Notes: generated by a model not told the origin, from the sequence alone. Positions 37,915 to 62,512 are shown, numbered from the stretch's first letter. The stretch: DNA of 64,000 bases from Clostridiaceae bacterium (GCA_012840535.1 DULF01000095.1:9069-73068), one strand, 5' to 3'. Numbers and translations: made by a program.

Positions 37915-37987
37915 AAAACCACGCCCCCTATCCAAGGTTTATTTTCTCATTTTTTTTTTATTTTTTCAATATAAAATCCTTACGGCG

Positions 37988-38029
37988 GGTAATGGGTATG
38001 AGGTAAGGGGTAAAGGGGAACAGGGAAGA
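37988..38029 (+). repeat. Short phased GGTANNN heptamer run (4 clean + 2 degenerate units)
   Basis: The units are GGTAATG GGTATGA GGTAAGG GGTAAAG GGGAACA GGGAAGA. This is the same unit family as the array at 59025-59157. Confidence 0.7.
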
Positions 38030-38123
38030 AAGCTATAGTCAGTCTTACGGCGGGCAAAGGGTTCAGGCAAGTGGTAAAAAATTGAAAATTTAACTGAATA
38101 AAAAAGAGGCTATTATAAAACCT

Positions 38124-38186
38124 CCAAACCATAACCTATAACCCCTTACCGTTAGGTAACACCCATTACCTATAACCTGTTTTACC
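38124..38186 (+). repeat. Degenerate complementary copies (NNNTACC/NNNAACC) forming the inverted partner of 37988-38029
   Basis: ACCCCTTACC (38141-38150) is the exact reverse complement of GGTAAGGGGT (38002-38011). ACCCATTACC (38161-38170) is the exact reverse complement of GGTAATGGGT (37988-37997). Confidence 0.65.
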
Positions 38187-38254
38187 GTCAGGTAAAACAA
38201 AAAAACAGAGACTAAGTCCTGTTTTCTCAAAATACAACAATATACTTCTCAGCG

Positions 38255-38288
38255 CAAAATGAAGACACTTATTAAAAATAAGTGTCTT
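38255..38288 (-). terminator. Hairpin terminator downstream of spoVG
   Basis: AAGACACTTAT (38262-38272) pairs perfectly (11 bp) with ATAAGTGTCTT (38278-38288), 6 nt after the spoVG stop. On the minus strand CATTTTG follows; the plus strand has TTTTTT. Confidence 0.6.
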
Positions 38289-38293
38289 TTTTC

Positions 38294-55961: not shown

Positions 55962-57113
55962 ATGGGGAGATACTGTGTCATTATGGCATTCAGTTTTGGT
56001 CCGAATGGTTTTAGAGAAGAAAATTCAGACATAAAGTTTATCCTGGAAATAATAGACGGCATGTATGACTGGGTGAGAGTTCTTGACAAGAACAGCAATA
56101 TCATCTTTCTTAACAAGGCTATGGCTGACGCGCTCAATTGTTATGCACCCGGGAAAAAATGCTATGAACTTTTAGGAAGAGAAGCTCCATGTGAAAACTG
56201 TATATCCCGAAAAGCAGTGTTTAACGGGTATCCTCACGAGAAAGAAGAAATAATAAACGGCAGAATATTTTCAGTAATGAGTTCACCCGTAAGGAACCAA
56301 AACGGTGAAATAATCGCAGTGGTCGAGGTTTTACGTGATGTTACGCAAATGAAACAAATGCAGCAGAAAATCATTGAGCATAACAAAAACCTTCAAAACA
56401 ACCTTGAAATGGCAAAAAAACTCCAGTATAGCCTTCTTCCCGACGAGTTTTTTGACGAAAGGATTAATTTTTCATATTTCTATGAGTCCTGCGAAATGCT
56501 TGGAGGTGATTTTATTGATATATTTGCTATTGACGAAGACCATATTGGAGTTTATATAGCCGATGTATCCGGTCATGGAGTCCCTGCGTCAATGCTGACA
56601 GTTTTCTTGTTCTCGTCAATAAACAGGGAAATACTGTCCCCGGCGTCTGCCCTTGAAGGACTTTATAAAAAATTCAACTGCTCCAGTCTTGGCAACAACA
56701 TGTACATAACTGTATTTTACGCGATAATTAATTTAAAAGACAGGAAAATGACATATTCAAATGCCGGTCATAATGTTTGCCCAATAGTTTTTGGTAATAA
56801 CCGCTTCGAATTGTTAAGGGTTCCGGGCGTCCCAATAAGCAATTGGGTTAACACGCCTTCATACACTGACAGGAGCATAATCCTCAATCCGAAAGACAGG
56901 CTTTTTCTTTATACTGATGGGTTGATAGAATTAAAGAACAGTGAAGGTGAGCAGTTTGGTGAAGAAAGGCTTCTGAATATACTTCTTAATGATACGTCAA
57001 GACCTGATGCTGTCCTTAGTAAAATATATAAAGCGGCAAGTAAATTTGCATCTCCGGAAAAGCCGCTTCAATTGGCTGACGATATAACCATGGCTCTGCT
57101 GGAAATAAAATAA
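55962..57113 (+). CDS. PAS-domain PP2C (SpoIIE/RsbU-type) serine phosphatase
   Basis: The N-terminal PAS-like region carries a 4-Cys cluster. It is followed by a coiled linker and a PP2C core (GGDFIDIF...YIADVSGHGVPASM...LYTDGLIE...DDIT). The start could instead be ATG 55983. Confidence 0.8.
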   Translation: MGRYCVIMAFSFGPNGFREENSDIKFILEIIDGMYDWVRVLDKNSNIIFLNKAMADALNCYAPGKKCYELLGREAPCENCISRKAVFNGYPHEKEEIINGRIFSVMSSPVRNQNGEIIAVVEVLRDVTQMKQMQQKIIEHNKNLQNNLEMAKKLQYSLLPDEFFDERINFSYFYESCEMLGGDFIDIFAIDEDHIGVYIADVSGHGVPASMLTVFLFSSINREILSPASALEGLYKKFNCSSLGNNMYITVFYAIINLKDRKMTYSNAGHNVCPIVFGNNRFELLRVPGVPISNWVNTPSYTDRSIILNPKDRLFLYTDGLIELKNSEGEQFGEERLLNILLNDTSRPDAVLSKIYKAASKFASPEKPLQLADDITMALLEIK

Positions 57114-57130
57114 ATACATTTTCCAGCTAT

Positions 57131-58303
57131 TCATTCATTGGCATCATTTATTAATGCCAGCGCATACAAGGCTGTCAGGTTGTCAAAGGAATAAAACTCA
57201 CAGGTCTTTTCATCTCCAAAACCTCCATAATAAGGGGAGTTAATGTCATCAACCATAAAATCCAGCATTCTGTCAATCAGTTTAAGGCATAGTTCCTCTT
57301 CTCCTACGGTCTTTGAGTATATTGCGGCAAGAGCATATACGGCTGTGCTCTCAAGTTGTTGTACAGGTTCCGATGTATATGGGTCGTACCATGCGTAAAG
57401 CTTTCCCTTTTCCAGCTCTTTTTTAAGCCATTGGGTAAAAAAACCGGTGTTTTCATTTGTTTCAGCCATGTGCAATACAGTATAAAGCGTATAGGTAAGG
57501 CAAACTCCCCTGCCCTCTTTATATTCCTCATCCGGGAAATATTTCCTGTCTTTATATGCATAATATTTATAGAAAAAAGGCGAGGCATTCGAAATCTTAC
57601 CGTTTTTAATAATTGAAATTCCCTTATCACAGATATTTCGCCAGCTTTTATTAAAAAAAGCCAGCCTGTTTATCGTGTAAAGGTCAATATAGCATAAAGG
57701 TATTGACTCTTTTCCCATATTTAGCTTAAAGTCGTACAACTCATAAATATCATATCCCCTGACCTGCTTTTTATAGATACCTTCCTGAATAAAACAGGCA
57801 ATATTAAGATACCTGCTGTCCCGCCATCTATCGTATGCATCCAGTAATGCTCCAATTATTCTTAAATCATCTATTAGGGCGTTGCACCATATGTCCTCAC
57901 CTGTCCTCCACCTGACATAGCGTCCGTCAAAAAGCAGTTCTTCCTCTAAAAAACGCAATTCCTTGTCAAACAGTTCTTTATCACTTTTTAGAACACAGTA
58001 CTCCATAAGCAAGCCTATTGATTCGGAAAGGGTATTCTCTCCGCTTCCGTCTGTCTTCAAGTTGGTCAATATTTGTCCGTTGTCCCACAACATGTTTGAT
58101 TTTAAAAAATTAAAGACTAAGGCTTCTTTTTCCCTGTAATTAATTTCACATCCGGAGTTCAGACCCTTAAATGCGTACTGTTGAGGAGGAGTTTTGACTG
58201 TGTTTTCTGCAATGTGAATTTCTGCCAAAAGCAGGCAGAAGGCTGAATAAAGACAGGCAAAAACTAAAAAAATTATGATACCGTTGTATTTTTTCACGAA
58301 CAA
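57131..58303 (-). CDS. Glycoside-hydrolase family 8-like (alpha/alpha)6-barrel protein with an N-terminal membrane anchor
   Basis: It contains SESIGLLMEY (compare the GH8 motif SEGxxYxM). DDLRIIGALLDAYDRW fits most of the GH8 signature D-x2-[IM]-x2-[SA]-[LIVM]2-x-A-x3-[FW]. Confidence 0.55.
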   Translation of the reverse strand: MFVKKYNGIIIFLVFACLYSAFCLLLAEIHIAENTVKTPPQQYAFKGLNSGCEINYREKEALVFNFLKSNMLWDNGQILTNLKTDGSGENTLSESIGLLMEYCVLKSDKELFDKELRFLEEELLFDGRYVRWRTGEDIWCNALIDDLRIIGALLDAYDRWRDSRYLNIACFIQEGIYKKQVRGYDIYELYDFKLNMGKESIPLCYIDLYTINRLAFFNKSWRNICDKGISIIKNGKISNASPFFYKYYAYKDRKYFPDEEYKEGRGVCLTYTLYTVLHMAETNENTGFFTQWLKKELEKGKLYAWYDPYTSEPVQQLESTAVYALAAIYSKTVGEEELCLKLIDRMLDFMVDDINSPYYGGFGDEKTCEFYSFDNLTALYALALINDANE

Positions 58304-58334
58304 TCCCCCACTATAAATGTATGCAGAGGACAGT

Positions 58335-59003
58335 TCAGGAATTACACAACCCCCTCTTTAGCATCTCCATATATTCCCTGCTCTCTTCCATAATTCTGTC
58401 CATGGATTGAAGCACTTCTTCCGCTTTCATGTTTTTAAAAATTTTCAGGTATTTATTGCCCAGCCCGTCCAGTACCAAGGCAATCAGTTCTAATGCTTTT
58501 TGAATATCAATATCCTTACGGAATTTAGAAGTATCAATCCCTCTGTAAAACCCTCCTAAACTCTCTGCAAATATTTTTTCATACCTTTCCTGAATATCTT
58601 TTCTTACTTCTTCAGAAGGATTTATAAAAGCATTAAAAAGCATTTCATACATCAGCGGCTCATTATAAGCTAATTTCAGCTTGGCAATTCCGTATTGAAT
58701 AAACCTTTCGAAAACATCCGCAGGCAGATTATCAAGTGTTTTTTCAAGTTTATCCGCCATATATTCCATAACGTAATCAATAAGGTACAAAAACAAATTT
58801 CTCTTGTTTCCAAAATAGTGAAAAAGGATGCCTTTTGAAATTCCTGCCTTTCTGGTGATTTCGTTGGTGGAAGCTTTGTCATATCCTTTTTTTGCAAACT
58901 CTTCTATACATATATCAATAATTTTCTTCCTTTTTTCCTCAGGCAAGTTTTTAAAGCTTTTATTCAAAGACAAATTTTCCTCCTTCTTAATGTGCTCTCT
59001 CAC
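58335..59003 (-). CDS. TetR/AcrR-family transcriptional regulator
   Basis: It has the HTH ASTNEITRKAGISKGILFHYF. The ORF track starts at GTG 59003, but an AAGGAGG RBS at 58985-58979 makes TTG 58973 the more likely start. Confidence 0.85.
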   Translation of the reverse strand: MREHIKKEENLSLNKSFKNLPEEKRKKIIDICIEEFAKKGYDKASTNEITRKAGISKGILFHYFGNKRNLFLYLIDYVMEYMADKLEKTLDNLPADVFERFIQYGIAKLKLAYNEPLMYEMLFNAFINPSEEVRKDIQERYEKIFAESLGGFYRGIDTSKFRKDIDIQKALELIALVLDGLGNKYLKIFKNMKAEEVLQSMDRIMEESREYMEMLKRGLCNS

Positions 59004-59024
59004 TTACATACTCCGTTCCCGATC

Positions 59025-59157
59025 ACTTACCTCGTACCTCTTACCTCATACCCCTTACCTCTTACCCCGTACCTATTACCTCTTACCTACTACCTATTAC
59101 CCCGTATCTATTACCTCTTACCTCATACCCCTTACCTCGTACCTCTTACCTCATACC
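59025..59157 (-). repeat. Tandem array of 19 strictly phased heptamers (GGTANNN on the transcribed minus strand)
   Basis: I parsed it by hand with no indels. The plus-strand units are ACTTACC TCGTACC TCTTACC TCATACC CCTTACC TCTTACC CCGTACC TATTACC TCTTACC TACTACC TATTACC CCGTATC TATTACC TCTTACC TCATACC CCTTACC TCGTACC TCTTACC TCATACC. The array fills the permease-tetR spacer. Confidence 0.9.
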
Positions 59158-59161
59158 CATG

Positions 59162-59959
59162 TTATACACATATATCCTTCCTGTTATAAAACACATAAGT
59201 CAAAGCAACCGATACAAGCGTTACAGCAGCCATTATTATTATATATACGCCTTCAATCCTGCCGCTGCTTACAATATCAGAGGGATTGATATATTTAAAA
59301 GGCGTAAGATACTTTAAATTCTCCAGCTTGTCTGATATAGCTGCTGTAATATTTATGAAAAATGCTCCCAGGACAATCCCAAAAGCAACAGGGTATATGG
59401 ATTTTGCTTTGACAATAAACACCGAAACCAATAAGCCAATAGCGGCAAATGTAATCATTATCAGAAAAAAACCCAGATGCATTAAAAGAAAAATATTAAT
59501 ATCGTAACCACTTTTTTTGAGAGCCTCAAACGCAAGATAATCTGCAACAGTGAAAACTACATTGAACACAGTAATATAAAAGAACACGCATAATGTTTTT
59601 GCAGTTACAATTGTATTTCTTGTTACAGGTTTTGCCATTAAAAACTCAACTGTTTTTTCACTTTCTTCTTTGGATATTATGCTAGTTGCGAGAAGAATTG
59701 CATATACACAGCCAAATAAGATTATATACAGAAAAACATATGCGAAGAAGTCCAGTATTTGCGCAAAATTAAGCTTATCCATGCTCAGTCCTTTAAGCAT
59801 TTCTTTCGGGAGCTTTTTCATAAGCTCGTTATATTCTCCTGCCTGCTCGGCTATCATAGGATACATCATCATTAACCCTATATTTGATATTATCAGTATT
59901 AATGTCCAAATTATAAATGACTTAAAATTTCTTGAAAGTTCTCTAAGGAATAATGCCAT
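59162..59959 (-). CDS. ABC-2-type transporter permease
   Basis: It is 265 aa with six predicted TM segments, directly downstream of the ABC ATPase. Confidence 0.75.
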   Translation of the reverse strand: MALFLRELSRNFKSFIIWTLILIISNIGLMMMYPMIAEQAGEYNELMKKLPKEMLKGLSMDKLNFAQILDFFAYVFLYIILFGCVYAILLATSIISKEESEKTVEFLMAKPVTRNTIVTAKTLCVFFYITVFNVVFTVADYLAFEALKKSGYDINIFLLMHLGFFLIMITFAAIGLLVSVFIVKAKSIYPVAFGIVLGAFFINITAAISDKLENLKYLTPFKYINPSDIVSSGRIEGVYIIIMAAVTLVSVALTYVFYNRKDICV

Positions 59960-59976
59960 ATCTTTTTACCCCCTGC

Positions 59977-60858
59977 TTAATTTCTGTCTTCCGACCGGTA
60001 ATAATGCATAAATACTTCTTCCAATGAAGGTTCTTCTATCCACAAGTTTTCAACCTTTACACCTGCAAGACTTTTTATAAGGATGTCAACTTTACCGCTA
60101 AACAGAAACTCCATTGTTTTATCCTTTGTTTGCACATTCACCATACCCGGTAATTCAAAGGTTTCATCATTTGCAAATTCAATTTTTATCTTTTTGAACT
60201 TGTCTCCGGCAAGTTCATCAACTTCTCCAATCCTCAATATCTTACCTTCCTTGATAATTGCCACCCTGTCACACAGCTTTTGTACTTCGCTTAAGACATG
60301 AGAAGAAAAGAATATGGTTACACCTCTTTTATTTTCTTCCCTTAGCACCTCAAAGAACTTATTCTGCATCAGTGGGTCCAGTCCGCCGGTAGGCTCATCA
60401 AGAAGCAGCAGCCTGGGTTCATGCAGAAGAGACTGAATTATTGCAACCTTTTTCTTATTTCCAAATGAAAGTGAATCAATTCTCTTATTTAAATCCAGCT
60501 CAAAAATATCACTGAGTTCCTTTATTCTTTTACTGCAATCCTTTCTGTAAAACTTGGCGGAATACCTCAGCAAATCCTTTACTTTCATGTCATCATAATA
60601 ATTTACTTCTGCCGGAAGATATCCAATATCCATTTTAATCTTCTCAGAATCCCTAAAACAATCCATTCCGAAAATTTTTGCACTTCCTCCTGAAGGAAAT
60701 ATAAAAGACAGCAAAGTCCTTATGGTAGTCGACTTACCTGCTCCATTCGGGCCAATGAAGCCAAAGATCTCACCTTCTCTTACATCCATGCTTACACCTA
60801 TAATTCCCCTGGACTTTCCGTAATACTTCGTCAGATTTCTTATCTCTATAGCATTCAC
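59977..60858 (-). CDS. ABC transporter ATP-binding protein
   Basis: It has Walker A GPNGAGKST, the signature LSFGNKKKV and Walker B LLLLDEPTGGLD. A GTG start at 60858 follows a GGGAAGGGG RBS. The ORF-track 5' extension covers promoter DNA. Confidence 0.85.
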   Translation of the reverse strand: MNAIEIRNLTKYYGKSRGIIGVSMDVREGEIFGFIGPNGAGKSTTIRTLLSFIFPSGGSAKIFGMDCFRDSEKIKMDIGYLPAEVNYYDDMKVKDLLRYSAKFYRKDCSKRIKELSDIFELDLNKRIDSLSFGNKKKVAIIQSLLHEPRLLLLDEPTGGLDPLMQNKFFEVLREENKRGVTIFFSSHVLSEVQKLCDRVAIIKEGKILRIGEVDELAGDKFKKIKIEFANDETFELPGMVNVQTKDKTMEFLFSGKVDILIKSLAGVKVENLWIEEPSLEEVFMHYYRSEDRN

Positions 60859-60890
60859 ATTACCAGCCCCTTCCCGCCTGTCAATTTCAC

Positions 60891-60945
60891 TGACCATATG
60901 GTCAATTATAAGTTTATTATATAACCAATTGACCATGTAGTCAAT
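60891..60945 (-). promoter_or_regulatory. Promoter with two palindromic operators for the ABC-ABC2-tetR operon
   Basis: On the minus strand: -35 TTGACT (60944-60939), a 17-nt spacer, -10 TATAAT (60921-60916). The palindrome ATTGACCATGTAGTCAAT (60928-60945) overlaps the -35. The perfect palindrome TGACCATATGGTCA (60891-60904) lies just downstream of the -10. Confidence 0.6.
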
Positions 60946-60954
60946 GTAGAGTTC

Positions 60955-61014
60955 AATAAAAAATAAGCAGGCGATAAATCTATTGCCTCCTTGGATAATA
61001 GATGTATCGCCTGC
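60955..61014 (-). terminator. Rho-independent terminator downstream of rnfB
   Basis: GCAGGCGATA (60967-60976) pairs with TATCGCCTGC (61005-61014). On the minus strand TTATTTTTTATT follows. Confidence 0.65.
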
Positions 61015-61057
61015 TGTAATAGATATATCGTCCGCTGTTTTTCTCACATCCAATTTA

Positions 61058-61882
61058 TCACACCGCAGCCTGGTTTAACTTGCGGCATAAGAATATTTGT
61101 ATAGTTTTTGTCGGACAAACTTTGGCACATTCGCCACAGTTATTGCACAATTCAGGGTTAATCTTAGCCAAATTGTCTTTAAGCTCAATAGCTCCTACAG
61201 GGCAGGCTCTCACGCATCTTCCGCAGCCGATGCAGCCCACATCGCAATTTTTTCTTACTATATTTCCTTTATCAGTACTGCTGCAGCAAACCGTATATTC
61301 AAGGCTTGCCGGTACCATCTCAATAATCTTTTTAGGGCAGGCAGCTACACATTTTCCGCAGCCTGTGCATTTTGAATCGATTACCCTTGCAAGCCCGTTT
61401 TCTATTACTATTGCGTCAAAAGGACATGCCCTGGCGCAATTTCCAAGTCCCACGCAGCCATAATTACAGGCCTGAGGTCCGCCAAACAGGTTTGCTGCTG
61501 CAAGGCAATCCTGTACTCCCTCATAATCAAATTTTTTCCTGCAAGTATCATTTGTGCCTCCGCATAATACTCTCGCAACTTTTTCTTCTACATCGGAAGT
61601 TTCAACGCCCATGATCTCCGCAATTTTACCCGCAACATCAGCGCCGCCCACAGGGCAACCATTTACCGGGCTGTTTCCTGCGACAACGGCTTCAGCAAAA
61701 GCATCACAGCCTGTTTGGCCGCATGCGGCACAATTGGCGCCGGGAAGGATTTCCCTTACTTTGCTGACCCTTTCATCTACGGCTACTTCAAATTTTTTGG
61801 ATGCATAGGACAACCCAAGCCCAAAAATCAGCCCCATTACTCCGACAACAACTACCGGTATCCATATAGTATCAAGCATCAA
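61058..61882 (-). CDS. rnfB: Rnf electron-transport complex subunit B (polyferredoxin)
   Basis: It has an N-terminal TM segment, CAACGQTGCDAFAEA, and several CxxCxxCxxxCP ferredoxin motifs. Confidence 0.9.
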   Translation of the reverse strand: MMLDTIWIPVVVVGVMGLIFGLGLSYASKKFEVAVDERVSKVREILPGANCAACGQTGCDAFAEAVVAGNSPVNGCPVGGADVAGKIAEIMGVETSDVEEKVARVLCGGTNDTCRKKFDYEGVQDCLAAANLFGGPQACNYGCVGLGNCARACPFDAIVIENGLARVIDSKCTGCGKCVAACPKKIIEMVPASLEYTVCCSSTDKGNIVRKNCDVGCIGCGRCVRACPVGAIELKDNLAKINPELCNNCGECAKVCPTKTIQIFLCRKLNQAAV

Positions 61883-61933
61883 CTATCACCATCCTTAAAA
61901 ATGTGTGGATATACCACCCACTAAACCATCACA

Positions 61934-62512
61934 TCACTGAAACAACCCCTGGAATCCAAAAAACGCTACGGATACCAGTGAAGCGGCAATCAGTGTTATC
62001 GGTAATCCCTTCAATGATTCAGGAATATCCGACATTTCTATCCTCTCACGCACACCTGCAAACAATATCAGTGCAAGAGTAAAACCTAATCCTGCACCAA
62101 AGCTGAACAATACGGAACTTAAGAAGTTGTATTGCCTTTCAACATTCAACAGCGCTACGCCAAGTACAGCACAGTTGGTGGTTATTAACGGCAGATATAT
62201 GCCAAGTGCCTTATAAAGCGAAGGTACAAGCTTCTTCAGTACAGTTTCCACAAGCTGAACCAGTGCTGCAATAACGAGAATAAAAACTATTATTTGCAAA
62301 TACTCAAGTCCAAAAGGTGCAAGGAGGTATTCATAAACCAGCCATGTAAAAGCTGAAGCTAAAGTCATAACAAATATGACGGCACCGCTCATACCTATAG
62401 CAGTGTTAAGCTTTTTGGAAACCCCCAGGAAAGGGCATATTCCTAAAAAGCGGACCAAAACAAAGTTTTCAACAAGTACCGCTCCCATAATAATAACAAT
62501 TATTTCACGCAT
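61934..62512 (-). CDS. rnfA: Rnf complex subunit A
   Basis: MREIIVIIMGAVLVENFVLVRFLGICPFLGVS is the typical RnfA N-terminus. Its ATG overlaps the rnfE stop (TAATG). Confidence 0.9.
   Translation of the reverse strand: MREIIVIIMGAVLVENFVLVRFLGICPFLGVSKKLNTAIGMSGAVIFVMTLASAFTWLVYEYLLAPFGLEYLQIIVFILVIAALVQLVETVLKKLVPSLYKALGIYLPLITTNCAVLGVALLNVERQYNFLSSVLFSFGAGLGFTLALILFAGVRERIEMSDIPESLKGLPITLIAASLVSVAFFGFQGLFQ

Follow-up and report, generated by a model that had tools for sequence, protein, structure and literature searches.

Cyanobacterial STRRs are intergenic repeats with a 7-bp unit, some of which lie between co-transcribed genes; their function is unknown, and effects on transcript stability or translational coupling have been suggested (PMC2670836). 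Bacterial VNTRs and contingency loci are likewise tandem repeats of short units with a copy number that varies between lineages, and the classical contingency repeats are homogeneous and are located within an ORF or between the two promoter boxes (-35 and -10). The sites of TRAP consist of 9-11 (G/U)AG triplets with 2-3 nt spacers. HutP reads the A and the G of XAG motifs that are held apart by sequence-independent 4-nt spacers, with three motifs per face and a linker of 12-17 nt, and it acts by opening a G-C-rich terminator that lies between two XAG sites (PMC2425495). At the level of DNA, the parS of plasmid pSM19035 requires a run of 4 or more contiguous heptads, whichever their orientation (PMC9499535).

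The array described here was analysed within a 64-kb window (the whole stretch of DNA under study). It resembles the STRRs in its head-to-tail 7-bp units, its uninterrupted phase, its non-coding intergenic location and its labile copy number. It differs from them in host, which is an uncultured Clostridia-class bacterium (a MAG) and not a heterocystous cyanobacterium, and in unit, which is RGGTAWG or, more generally, GGTANNN. Its family occupies 2-3 sites in the 64 kb examined; a genome-wide dispersal like that of STRRs would be a further resemblance. Because host and unit differ, the array behaves like an STRR yet stands outside the named cyanobacterial families. With bacterial VNTRs it shares a short unit, a lineage-variable copy number and a block structure that fits slippage or unequal recombination. 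Unlike classical contingency repeats, it is intercistronic and interrupted.

Direct reading of the array (Table 1) gave exactly 19 x 7 nt with 0 indels. Tandem Repeats Finder placed it at 59026-59157 with a period of 7, 18.9 copies, 75% matches and 0% indels, so that the 19 indel-free, phased heptamers of the initial annotation were borne out by both. On the minus strand, unit positions 1-4 read GGTA in 18 of the 19 units, the exception being unit 8 (GATA), which amounts to a single change in the 76 positions of the core. Position 5 is more variable (A11/C4/T3/G1), as are positions 6 (G15/T4) and 7 (A14/G4/T1), and about 7 of the 8 mutational steps inferred for the units fall in positions 5-7 (p about 0.013 if mutation were uniform). 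The pattern GGTAN3GGTAN3GGTA, allowing at most one mismatch, was matched 20 times in the window against 0.13 +/- 0.42 expected from 100 dinucleotide shuffles. The 18 junctions between units spell 10 GAG, 4 TAG and 4 GGG triplets, in agreement with the count first given for the RNA.

The internal order of the units is not uniform. Nine unit types are present and adjacent units are never identical. Tandem Repeats Finder also reported a 35-nt higher-order period (82% matches), and units 1-4 recur exactly as units 16-19 in a 28-nt block (at 59158 and 59053), which is the longest exact repeat inside the array; the higher-order blocks noticed at the outset are therefore present. The 35-nt period and the duplicated 28-nt end block are the signature of block duplication. 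With nine unit types and no identical neighbours, single-unit slippage would be inefficient, which argues for growth mostly by blocks.

Table 1. Features of the permease-tetR and spoVG-glmU regions, in window coordinates.
Feature	Coordinates	Strand	Basis
GH8-like gene	57131..58303	-	weak Pfam PF01270 match
TetR/AcrR-family regulator gene, TTG start	58335..58973	-	Pfam PF00440, E 1.9e-14
Non-repetitive spacer remainder with tetR RBS AAGGAGG (58979-58985)	58974..59024	-	direct reading
Heptanucleotide tandem array, 19 units GGTANNN	59025..59157	-	exact phase, unit comparison, shuffles
ABC-2 family permease gene	59162..59959	-	Pfam PF12679, E 2.7e-30; identical protein on Logan contig L001
ABC transporter ATPase ORF, listed from first possible start	59977..61053	-	Pfam PF00005, E 4.4e-23
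Promoter-like site TTGACT-17-TATAAT (60944-60916) with two operator-like palindromes	60889..60945	-	promoter scan, 11/12 matches
Intrinsic terminator of upstream rnf operon, stem 61016-60966 and T-tract	60955..61037	-	Tandem Repeats Finder 60996-61038; fold
Short array, heptamers of the same family (GGGTAAT GGGTATG AGGTAAG GGGTAAA GGGGAAC AGGGAAG)	37987..38028	+	repeat scan
Inverted partner: 35-nt tandem duplication of heptamers and TTACC-N4-GGTAA hairpins (minus strand GGTAAGGGGTTATAGGTTATGG and similar)	38128..38198	-	

The array fills most of the spacer between two genes. It begins 4 nt (CATG) past the TAA stop of the permease gene (59164-59162) and ends about 39-44 nt ahead of the tetR SD, AAGGAGG beginning 39 nt beyond the array, in line with the distances of 4 and about 40 nt annotated earlier. 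The permease stop and the SD core of tetR (AGGAG) are 177 nt apart. All three minus-strand frames of the array contain stop codons, and the array is thus non-coding on the transcribed strand, as had been claimed. All three plus-strand frames are open, which accounts for the spurious ORFs called on that strand (58828-59289 and 58992-59189), again as proposed. These overlapping ORFs are antisense to well-supported genes, and the location of the array is intergenic.

Two other identities were considered for the array and rejected. A plus-strand heptad-repeat protein was ruled out because the ORFs in question overlap tetR and the permease gene in antisense; the plus-strand periodic peptide, used as a query to a protein database in search of arrays called as ORFs, returned no match. 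A CRISPR identity was ruled out by the period of 7 nt and the lack of spacers. As a separate observation, the sense strand carries GAGGU-AAGGGGU-AUG-AGG-UAA twice, at ~59100-59135 and ~59030-59065 (minus strand; coordinates estimated by eye), in which an SD-like motif at the correct spacing is followed by a two-codon mini-ORF, Met-Arg-stop.

The array lies within a conserved gene cluster. On the minus strand the order is rnfG/E/A/B, ABC ATPase, ABC-2 permease, array, tetR and GH8-like gene, beyond which stands a convergent gene for a PAS-SpoIIE phosphatase. The true start of the ATPase is probably near 60897, judging by a 306-aa orthologue in the relative L002. The encoded TetR is 100% identical to P0001 (annotated as 'MAG TPA: Clostridiaceae bacterium'), and the RBS of its gene lies 5 nt ahead of the TTG start (58973). 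The GH8-like gene follows 31 nt past the tetR stop and is the last of the conserved cluster, a position kept in L002, L003, L126 and L129.

The upstream end of the unit has the features of a conventionally regulated promoter. One palindrome, ATTGACTACATGGTCAAT (60945-60928), overlaps the -35 box of the near-consensus promoter, and a second, ATTGACCATATGGTCAGT (60906-60889), lies just downstream of the -10 box/start region. The two are near-identical, sharing the form ATTGACyAyATGGTCAnT, and both are conserved in L002 (1920-1975), whose TetR is 84% identical. The TetR encoded farther downstream in this operon probably uses them as its operators. Conventional control of the operon would already be provided by this promoter and the two palindromic operator-like sites. 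Gene order, the position of the promoter and relatives with almost no spacer together suggest that ATPase, permease, array and tetR, possibly with the GH8-like gene, form one autoregulated transcription unit, in which case the array would be transcribed in its G-rich sense. A separate tetR promoter inside the spacer was ruled out, as the scan found no promoter-like site there and L129 is without any spacer.

The upstream rnf operon is separated from the transporter-tetR unit by its intrinsic terminator (Table 1), which folds with a dG of -28 kcal/mol (z -5.6) and is kept in L002 (1819-1859). The 5' arm of this terminator is tandemly duplicated, 21 nt x 2 (61037-61017 and 61016-60996), and the duplication is also kept in L002 (1819-1895). 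Because of it, the 3' arm has two alternative partners, an arrangement that might be attenuator-like.

Comparison of orthologous loci shows that the operon is stable and its spacer is not. The order ATPase-permease-tetR-GH8-like gene-SpoIIE phosphatase is kept in five lineages, in which the permease-tetR spacer varies; these are between-species comparisons (about 87% nucleotide identity). Against 177 nt and 19 units in the window, L002 (TetR 84% identical) has a stop-to-SD distance of 51 nt and 4 units, GGGTAAG GAGTAAG AGGTAAG GGGTAAG. In L003 and L124 (TetR 87% identical) the distance is 28 nt, with 0 GGTA units. In L126-128 (TetR 59% identical) it is 87 nt of unrelated sequence with 0 units, and in L129 (TetR 56% identical) it is 0 nt with 0 units, the SD abutting the permease stop. 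The non-repetitive remainder of the window's spacer is alignable with the spacers of L002 and L003. A TetR query against metagenome contigs gave a single true relative, L124, whose spacer is identical to that of L003.

The copy number at the orthologous site thus takes the values 19, 4, 0, 0 and 0 in related genomes, and the array can be described, as it was initially, as an expanding and contracting VNTR. The same comparison counts against a conserved function, since close relatives that keep the operon have few units or none. The GH8-like gene is 82% identical in nucleotide sequence between the window and L002, closer than either is to L003 (79%). This placement fits a history in which a 4-unit seed arose once and later expanded in the lineage of the window. 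In 32 kb of a relative, one 4-unit heptamer site was found.

Taken together, these observations favour, with a probability of roughly 0.7, the reading that the array is a lineage-specific, STRR-like heptanucleotide VNTR whose presence as an unstructured spacer between two cistrons is tolerated. In the recent ancestor of the window and L002, the permease-tetR spacer would have acquired a short, purine-rich seed, about four units of RGGTAAG. This seed would then have grown to 19 units by replication slippage and by unequal recombination of 14-, 28- and 35-nt blocks. The array would be transcribed within the TetR-autoregulated ATPase-permease-tetR mRNA, to judge by gene order and promoter position, and may be tolerated there because its G-rich, C-poor RNA has no secondary structure, terminator or long sense ORF. 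As the stop-to-SD distance has been stretched to 177 nt (0-87 nt in relatives), tetR would be translated from its own AAGGAGG, uncoupled from the permease. Any change in TetR dosage would be a by-product of copy number, and the array would not be a sequence-specific regulatory device.

Some observations could be held against the VNTR reading. Single-unit slippage should be inefficient in this array, and its XAG triplets fall into runs that have a superficial likeness to the site layout of HutP. The near-invariant GGTA core could reflect constraint, and its presence at separate loci and in the L002 lineage could point to a recognised motif. The distribution of similar arrays bears on this core. 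Five consecutive GGTANNN units were sought in 185,579 species genomes, which gave at least 120 loci. Among the loci listed, Cyanobacteria contribute most, the rest coming from Bacteroidota, Planctomycetota, Acidobacteriota, Chloroflexota, Gemmatimonadota, Proteobacteria and others; neither Clostridia nor the source genome are among the loci listed. Among the matches listed, 122 of the 137 GGTA-core arrays are not within long ORFs, and their lengths range up to 26 units around a median of 7, with four arrays of 19 or more. Compared with most arrays in other phyla, that of the window is far more heterogeneous in its units.

The same 8-kb loci (L004-L123) hold 23 further heptamer arrays with unrelated units, each of 8 or more units and up to 43. 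Genomes with a GGTA-core array thus often hold such unrelated arrays close by, for instance at 335-636 in L071, 2926-3106 in L106 and 3069-3228 in L007. It seems that period 7 itself, and not one motif, is favoured in these genomes, chiefly those of Cyanobacteria and Bacteroidota. In unrelated heptamer arrays with at least 4 mutational steps, variation is limited to 3-4 of the 7 positions, and in the window array to positions 2, 5, 6 and 7. Since unselected arrays behave alike, an invariant core with a variable tail is a normal property of heptamer repeats and not a recognition code.

Mobile elements were searched as well. A blastn search of the array against phages gave no match, and against plasmids one, an unrelated AGGTATG array in Rahnella beside an IS end. 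In L135, the locus from this plasmid (Rahnella aceris pPlas1, NZ_CP067058.1), CACAACT x 5 (1327-1363) adjoins AGGTATG x 10 with variants (1501-1595). Both arrays lie between a ParM-fragment/partition gene and the IS end of a conjugative plasmid, in an unannotated region.

Within the window, the heptamer family is also found in the spoVG-glmU spacer (37936-38293), where it occurs in both orientations relative to transcription (Table 1). In the predicted fold, 38128-38198 pairs with 37987-38011 (z -3.56). Elsewhere in the 64-kb window, no GGTA-core heptamer arrays were found beyond the permease-tetR array and these two. In L131-133, whose GlmU is 93% identical, the ends of the spoVG-glmU spacer are conserved and its middle is wholly different, without heptamers. 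As these spacers differ among relatives, short heptamer arrays appear to be a labile intergenic filler in the clade, in either orientation. An 86% relative, L134, has a different heptamer, TATCTGT x 3.6, at the orthologous spot (475-499). This suggests that heptamer periodicity recurs at the site whatever the sequence of the unit.

The spoVG-glmU arrays are part of a repeat-rich composite insert of ~220 bp (37979-38198) that is missing from the 93%-identical relative. Its components are CTTACGGCGGG as a direct repeat at a distance of 65 nt, a tandem duplication of 35 nt, a pair of TTACC-N4-GGTAA hairpins and the inverted heptamer arrays, together with a terminator-like hairpin, GGAGG-N-CCTC-T6, in its interior. 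A MITE-like insertion is conceivable, as is a small RNA gene; Rfam gave no match.

The strict phase of the array raises the question of whether it is read by a protein. The initial annotation took the junction triplets for a (G/U)AG code of the TRAP/HutP type, which would make the array an RNA platform on which a ring-shaped protein, bound to phased XAG triplets, controls tetR. Indeed, XAG triplets occupy 14 of the 18 junctions and are spaced by 4 nt, like the motifs of HutP (PMC2425495). They form runs of 3, 3, 4, 1 and 3 at the 7-nt period, separated by GGG units, and the three-XAG runs stand 11 nt apart (one GGG unit), so that two clusters of three XAG with 4-nt spacers are present. The RNA is also predicted to be single-stranded, as such binders need: the array folds with an MFE of -6.9 kcal/mol, an empty centroid and a z of -0.54 (-0.25 with flanks). 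The likeness to the sites of the Bacillus subtilis hut terminator thus consists in XAG triplets that recur with a 7-nt period in single-stranded RNA, and the runs resemble the 3+3 layout of HutP superficially. This phase is trivial, as every AG-containing heptamer repeat shows it, and it is therefore not specific for HutP. In contrast to the hut sites, the array has 18 motifs and not 3+3, and four of these are GGG, in which the A needed by HutP is missing. A G-C-rich intrinsic terminator between XAG sites was not found, the scan detecting no terminator-like site between 59161 and 58974, and the array does not overlap the RBS. The context is that of an ABC transporter and a TetR regulator, neither hut nor trp. 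In contrast to TRAP sites, with their 2-3 nt spacing, all spacers measure 4 nt. Conservation is lacking too, for among the relatives that keep the operon one has 4 units and three have none, and the second locus carries the heptamers antisense as well as sense. No HutP, TRAP or RHH-type protein was found among the ten small ORFs of the 64-kb window; Rfam gave no match at E <= 1 in 56000-62000 and, at gathering thresholds, only two tRNAs in the whole window. The proposed code is not supported by this comparison, and an RNA platform is highly improbable. The heptads might instead be read as DNA, bound cooperatively by a small dimeric protein on the model of the ribbon-helix-helix omega/ParB of pSM19035, and serve as a repressor pad or as a centromere-like or nucleoid-organising site. 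A GGTA core followed by three variable bases at a strict 7-bp phase would suit a heptad reader, and the core recurs at the second locus and in L002. The array shares with the omega sites contiguous 7-bp units with a conserved core, at least four in a row, in a Firmicute (PMC9499535), and the sole plasmid match in blastn is a heptamer array ~1 kb from a parM fragment. That array adjoins an IS end, probably incidentally, and the core-plus-variable pattern is found equally in unselected heptamer repeats. The window heptad differs from that of pSM19035; its 19 units share one orientation and are chromosomal, inside an operon and not at its promoter, and absent in relatives. Contiguous heptads are present, and no cognate RHH, ParB or ParA gene was found among the neighbours or small ORFs. 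The likelihood of a DNA platform is accordingly very remote. Generalised to both types of binder, the GGTA-core arrays would form a family of functional motifs, dispersed in this Clostridia lineage and read in phase by an oligomeric protein (a HutP-type RNA or an omega-type DNA binder), with the 19 units setting TetR dosage, which is quite improbable. If such a phase-reading protein were real, TetR dosage in an autoregulated efflux operon would depend on copy number and be heritable yet reversible.

Effects of the array that need no dedicated reader were also weighed. As a contingency-type locus selected for its mutability, the array would tune the ratio of TetR to transporter through its copy number. 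It could do so by spacer length, by SD-like decoys, by a propensity to form two-tetrad G-quadruplexes or R-loops, or by endonuclease access. The array lies exactly between the regulated genes and the repressor gene of an autoregulated operon, its length differs strongly between lineages, and STRRs have been suggested to have comparable effects (PMC2670836). Its sense strand carries 10 GAGGU motifs, which might keep ribosomes on the spacer, and GG tracts every 7 nt, which allow two-tetrad G-quadruplexes only, with 5-nt loops, GGGG runs being 14-35 nt apart. Canonical G-quadruplexes have four or more tracts, each of 3 or more G, and loops no longer than 7 nt. The ViennaRNA model with the G4 option returned the same MFE and selected no G-quadruplex. 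An interrupted array without identical neighbours should also slip rarely, and in every lineage tetR has a strong RBS of its own, however long the spacer. Tuning of this kind is considered unlikely. Finally, the array or its length could have been made by short-read mis-assembly. The source appears to be a MAG, and the copy number of exactly 19 rests on this single assembly. Exact-protein look-ups led from the permease to one 1.1-kb contig and from an 88-aa SpoVG to one 0.5-kb contig, with no second full-length array; look-ups of P0001, of the 212-aa TetR and of the listed 92-aa SpoVG ORF found no record in other assemblies. The permease contig, L001 (Logan, SRR29786047), encodes the identical protein, carries the first 33 nt of the array (1074-1106) and then ends. 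It matches the first 4 units exactly, and its independence shows that the start of the array was not created by a single assembly. The 4-unit array at the same site in L002 and the flanks, which join permease and tetR in the conserved order, likewise speak against mis-assembly, as does the longest internal exact repeat of only 28 nt, which ordinary k-mer sizes can traverse. An artefact is therefore hardly to be expected. L001 itself breaks 33 nt into the array despite that short repeat length; the cause could be low coverage or copy-number heterogeneity in the SRR29786047 sample.

Read as a lineage-specific VNTR, the array as it stands matters little and is a known kind of simple-sequence repeat in an unusual host. 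It would gain importance if its copy number tuned the ratio of repressor to transporter or if some protein read its phase, and the present evidence indicates neither. In practical terms, the array produces spurious opposite-strand ORFs and broken short-read contigs, and it is a possible marker for strain typing. For the biology of the group, it documents heptanucleotide arrays of the STRR kind, mainly familiar from cyanobacteria, in an uncultured Clostridia lineage of anaerobic digesters as well, and shows that such arrays can occupy the interior of an operon without disrupting it.
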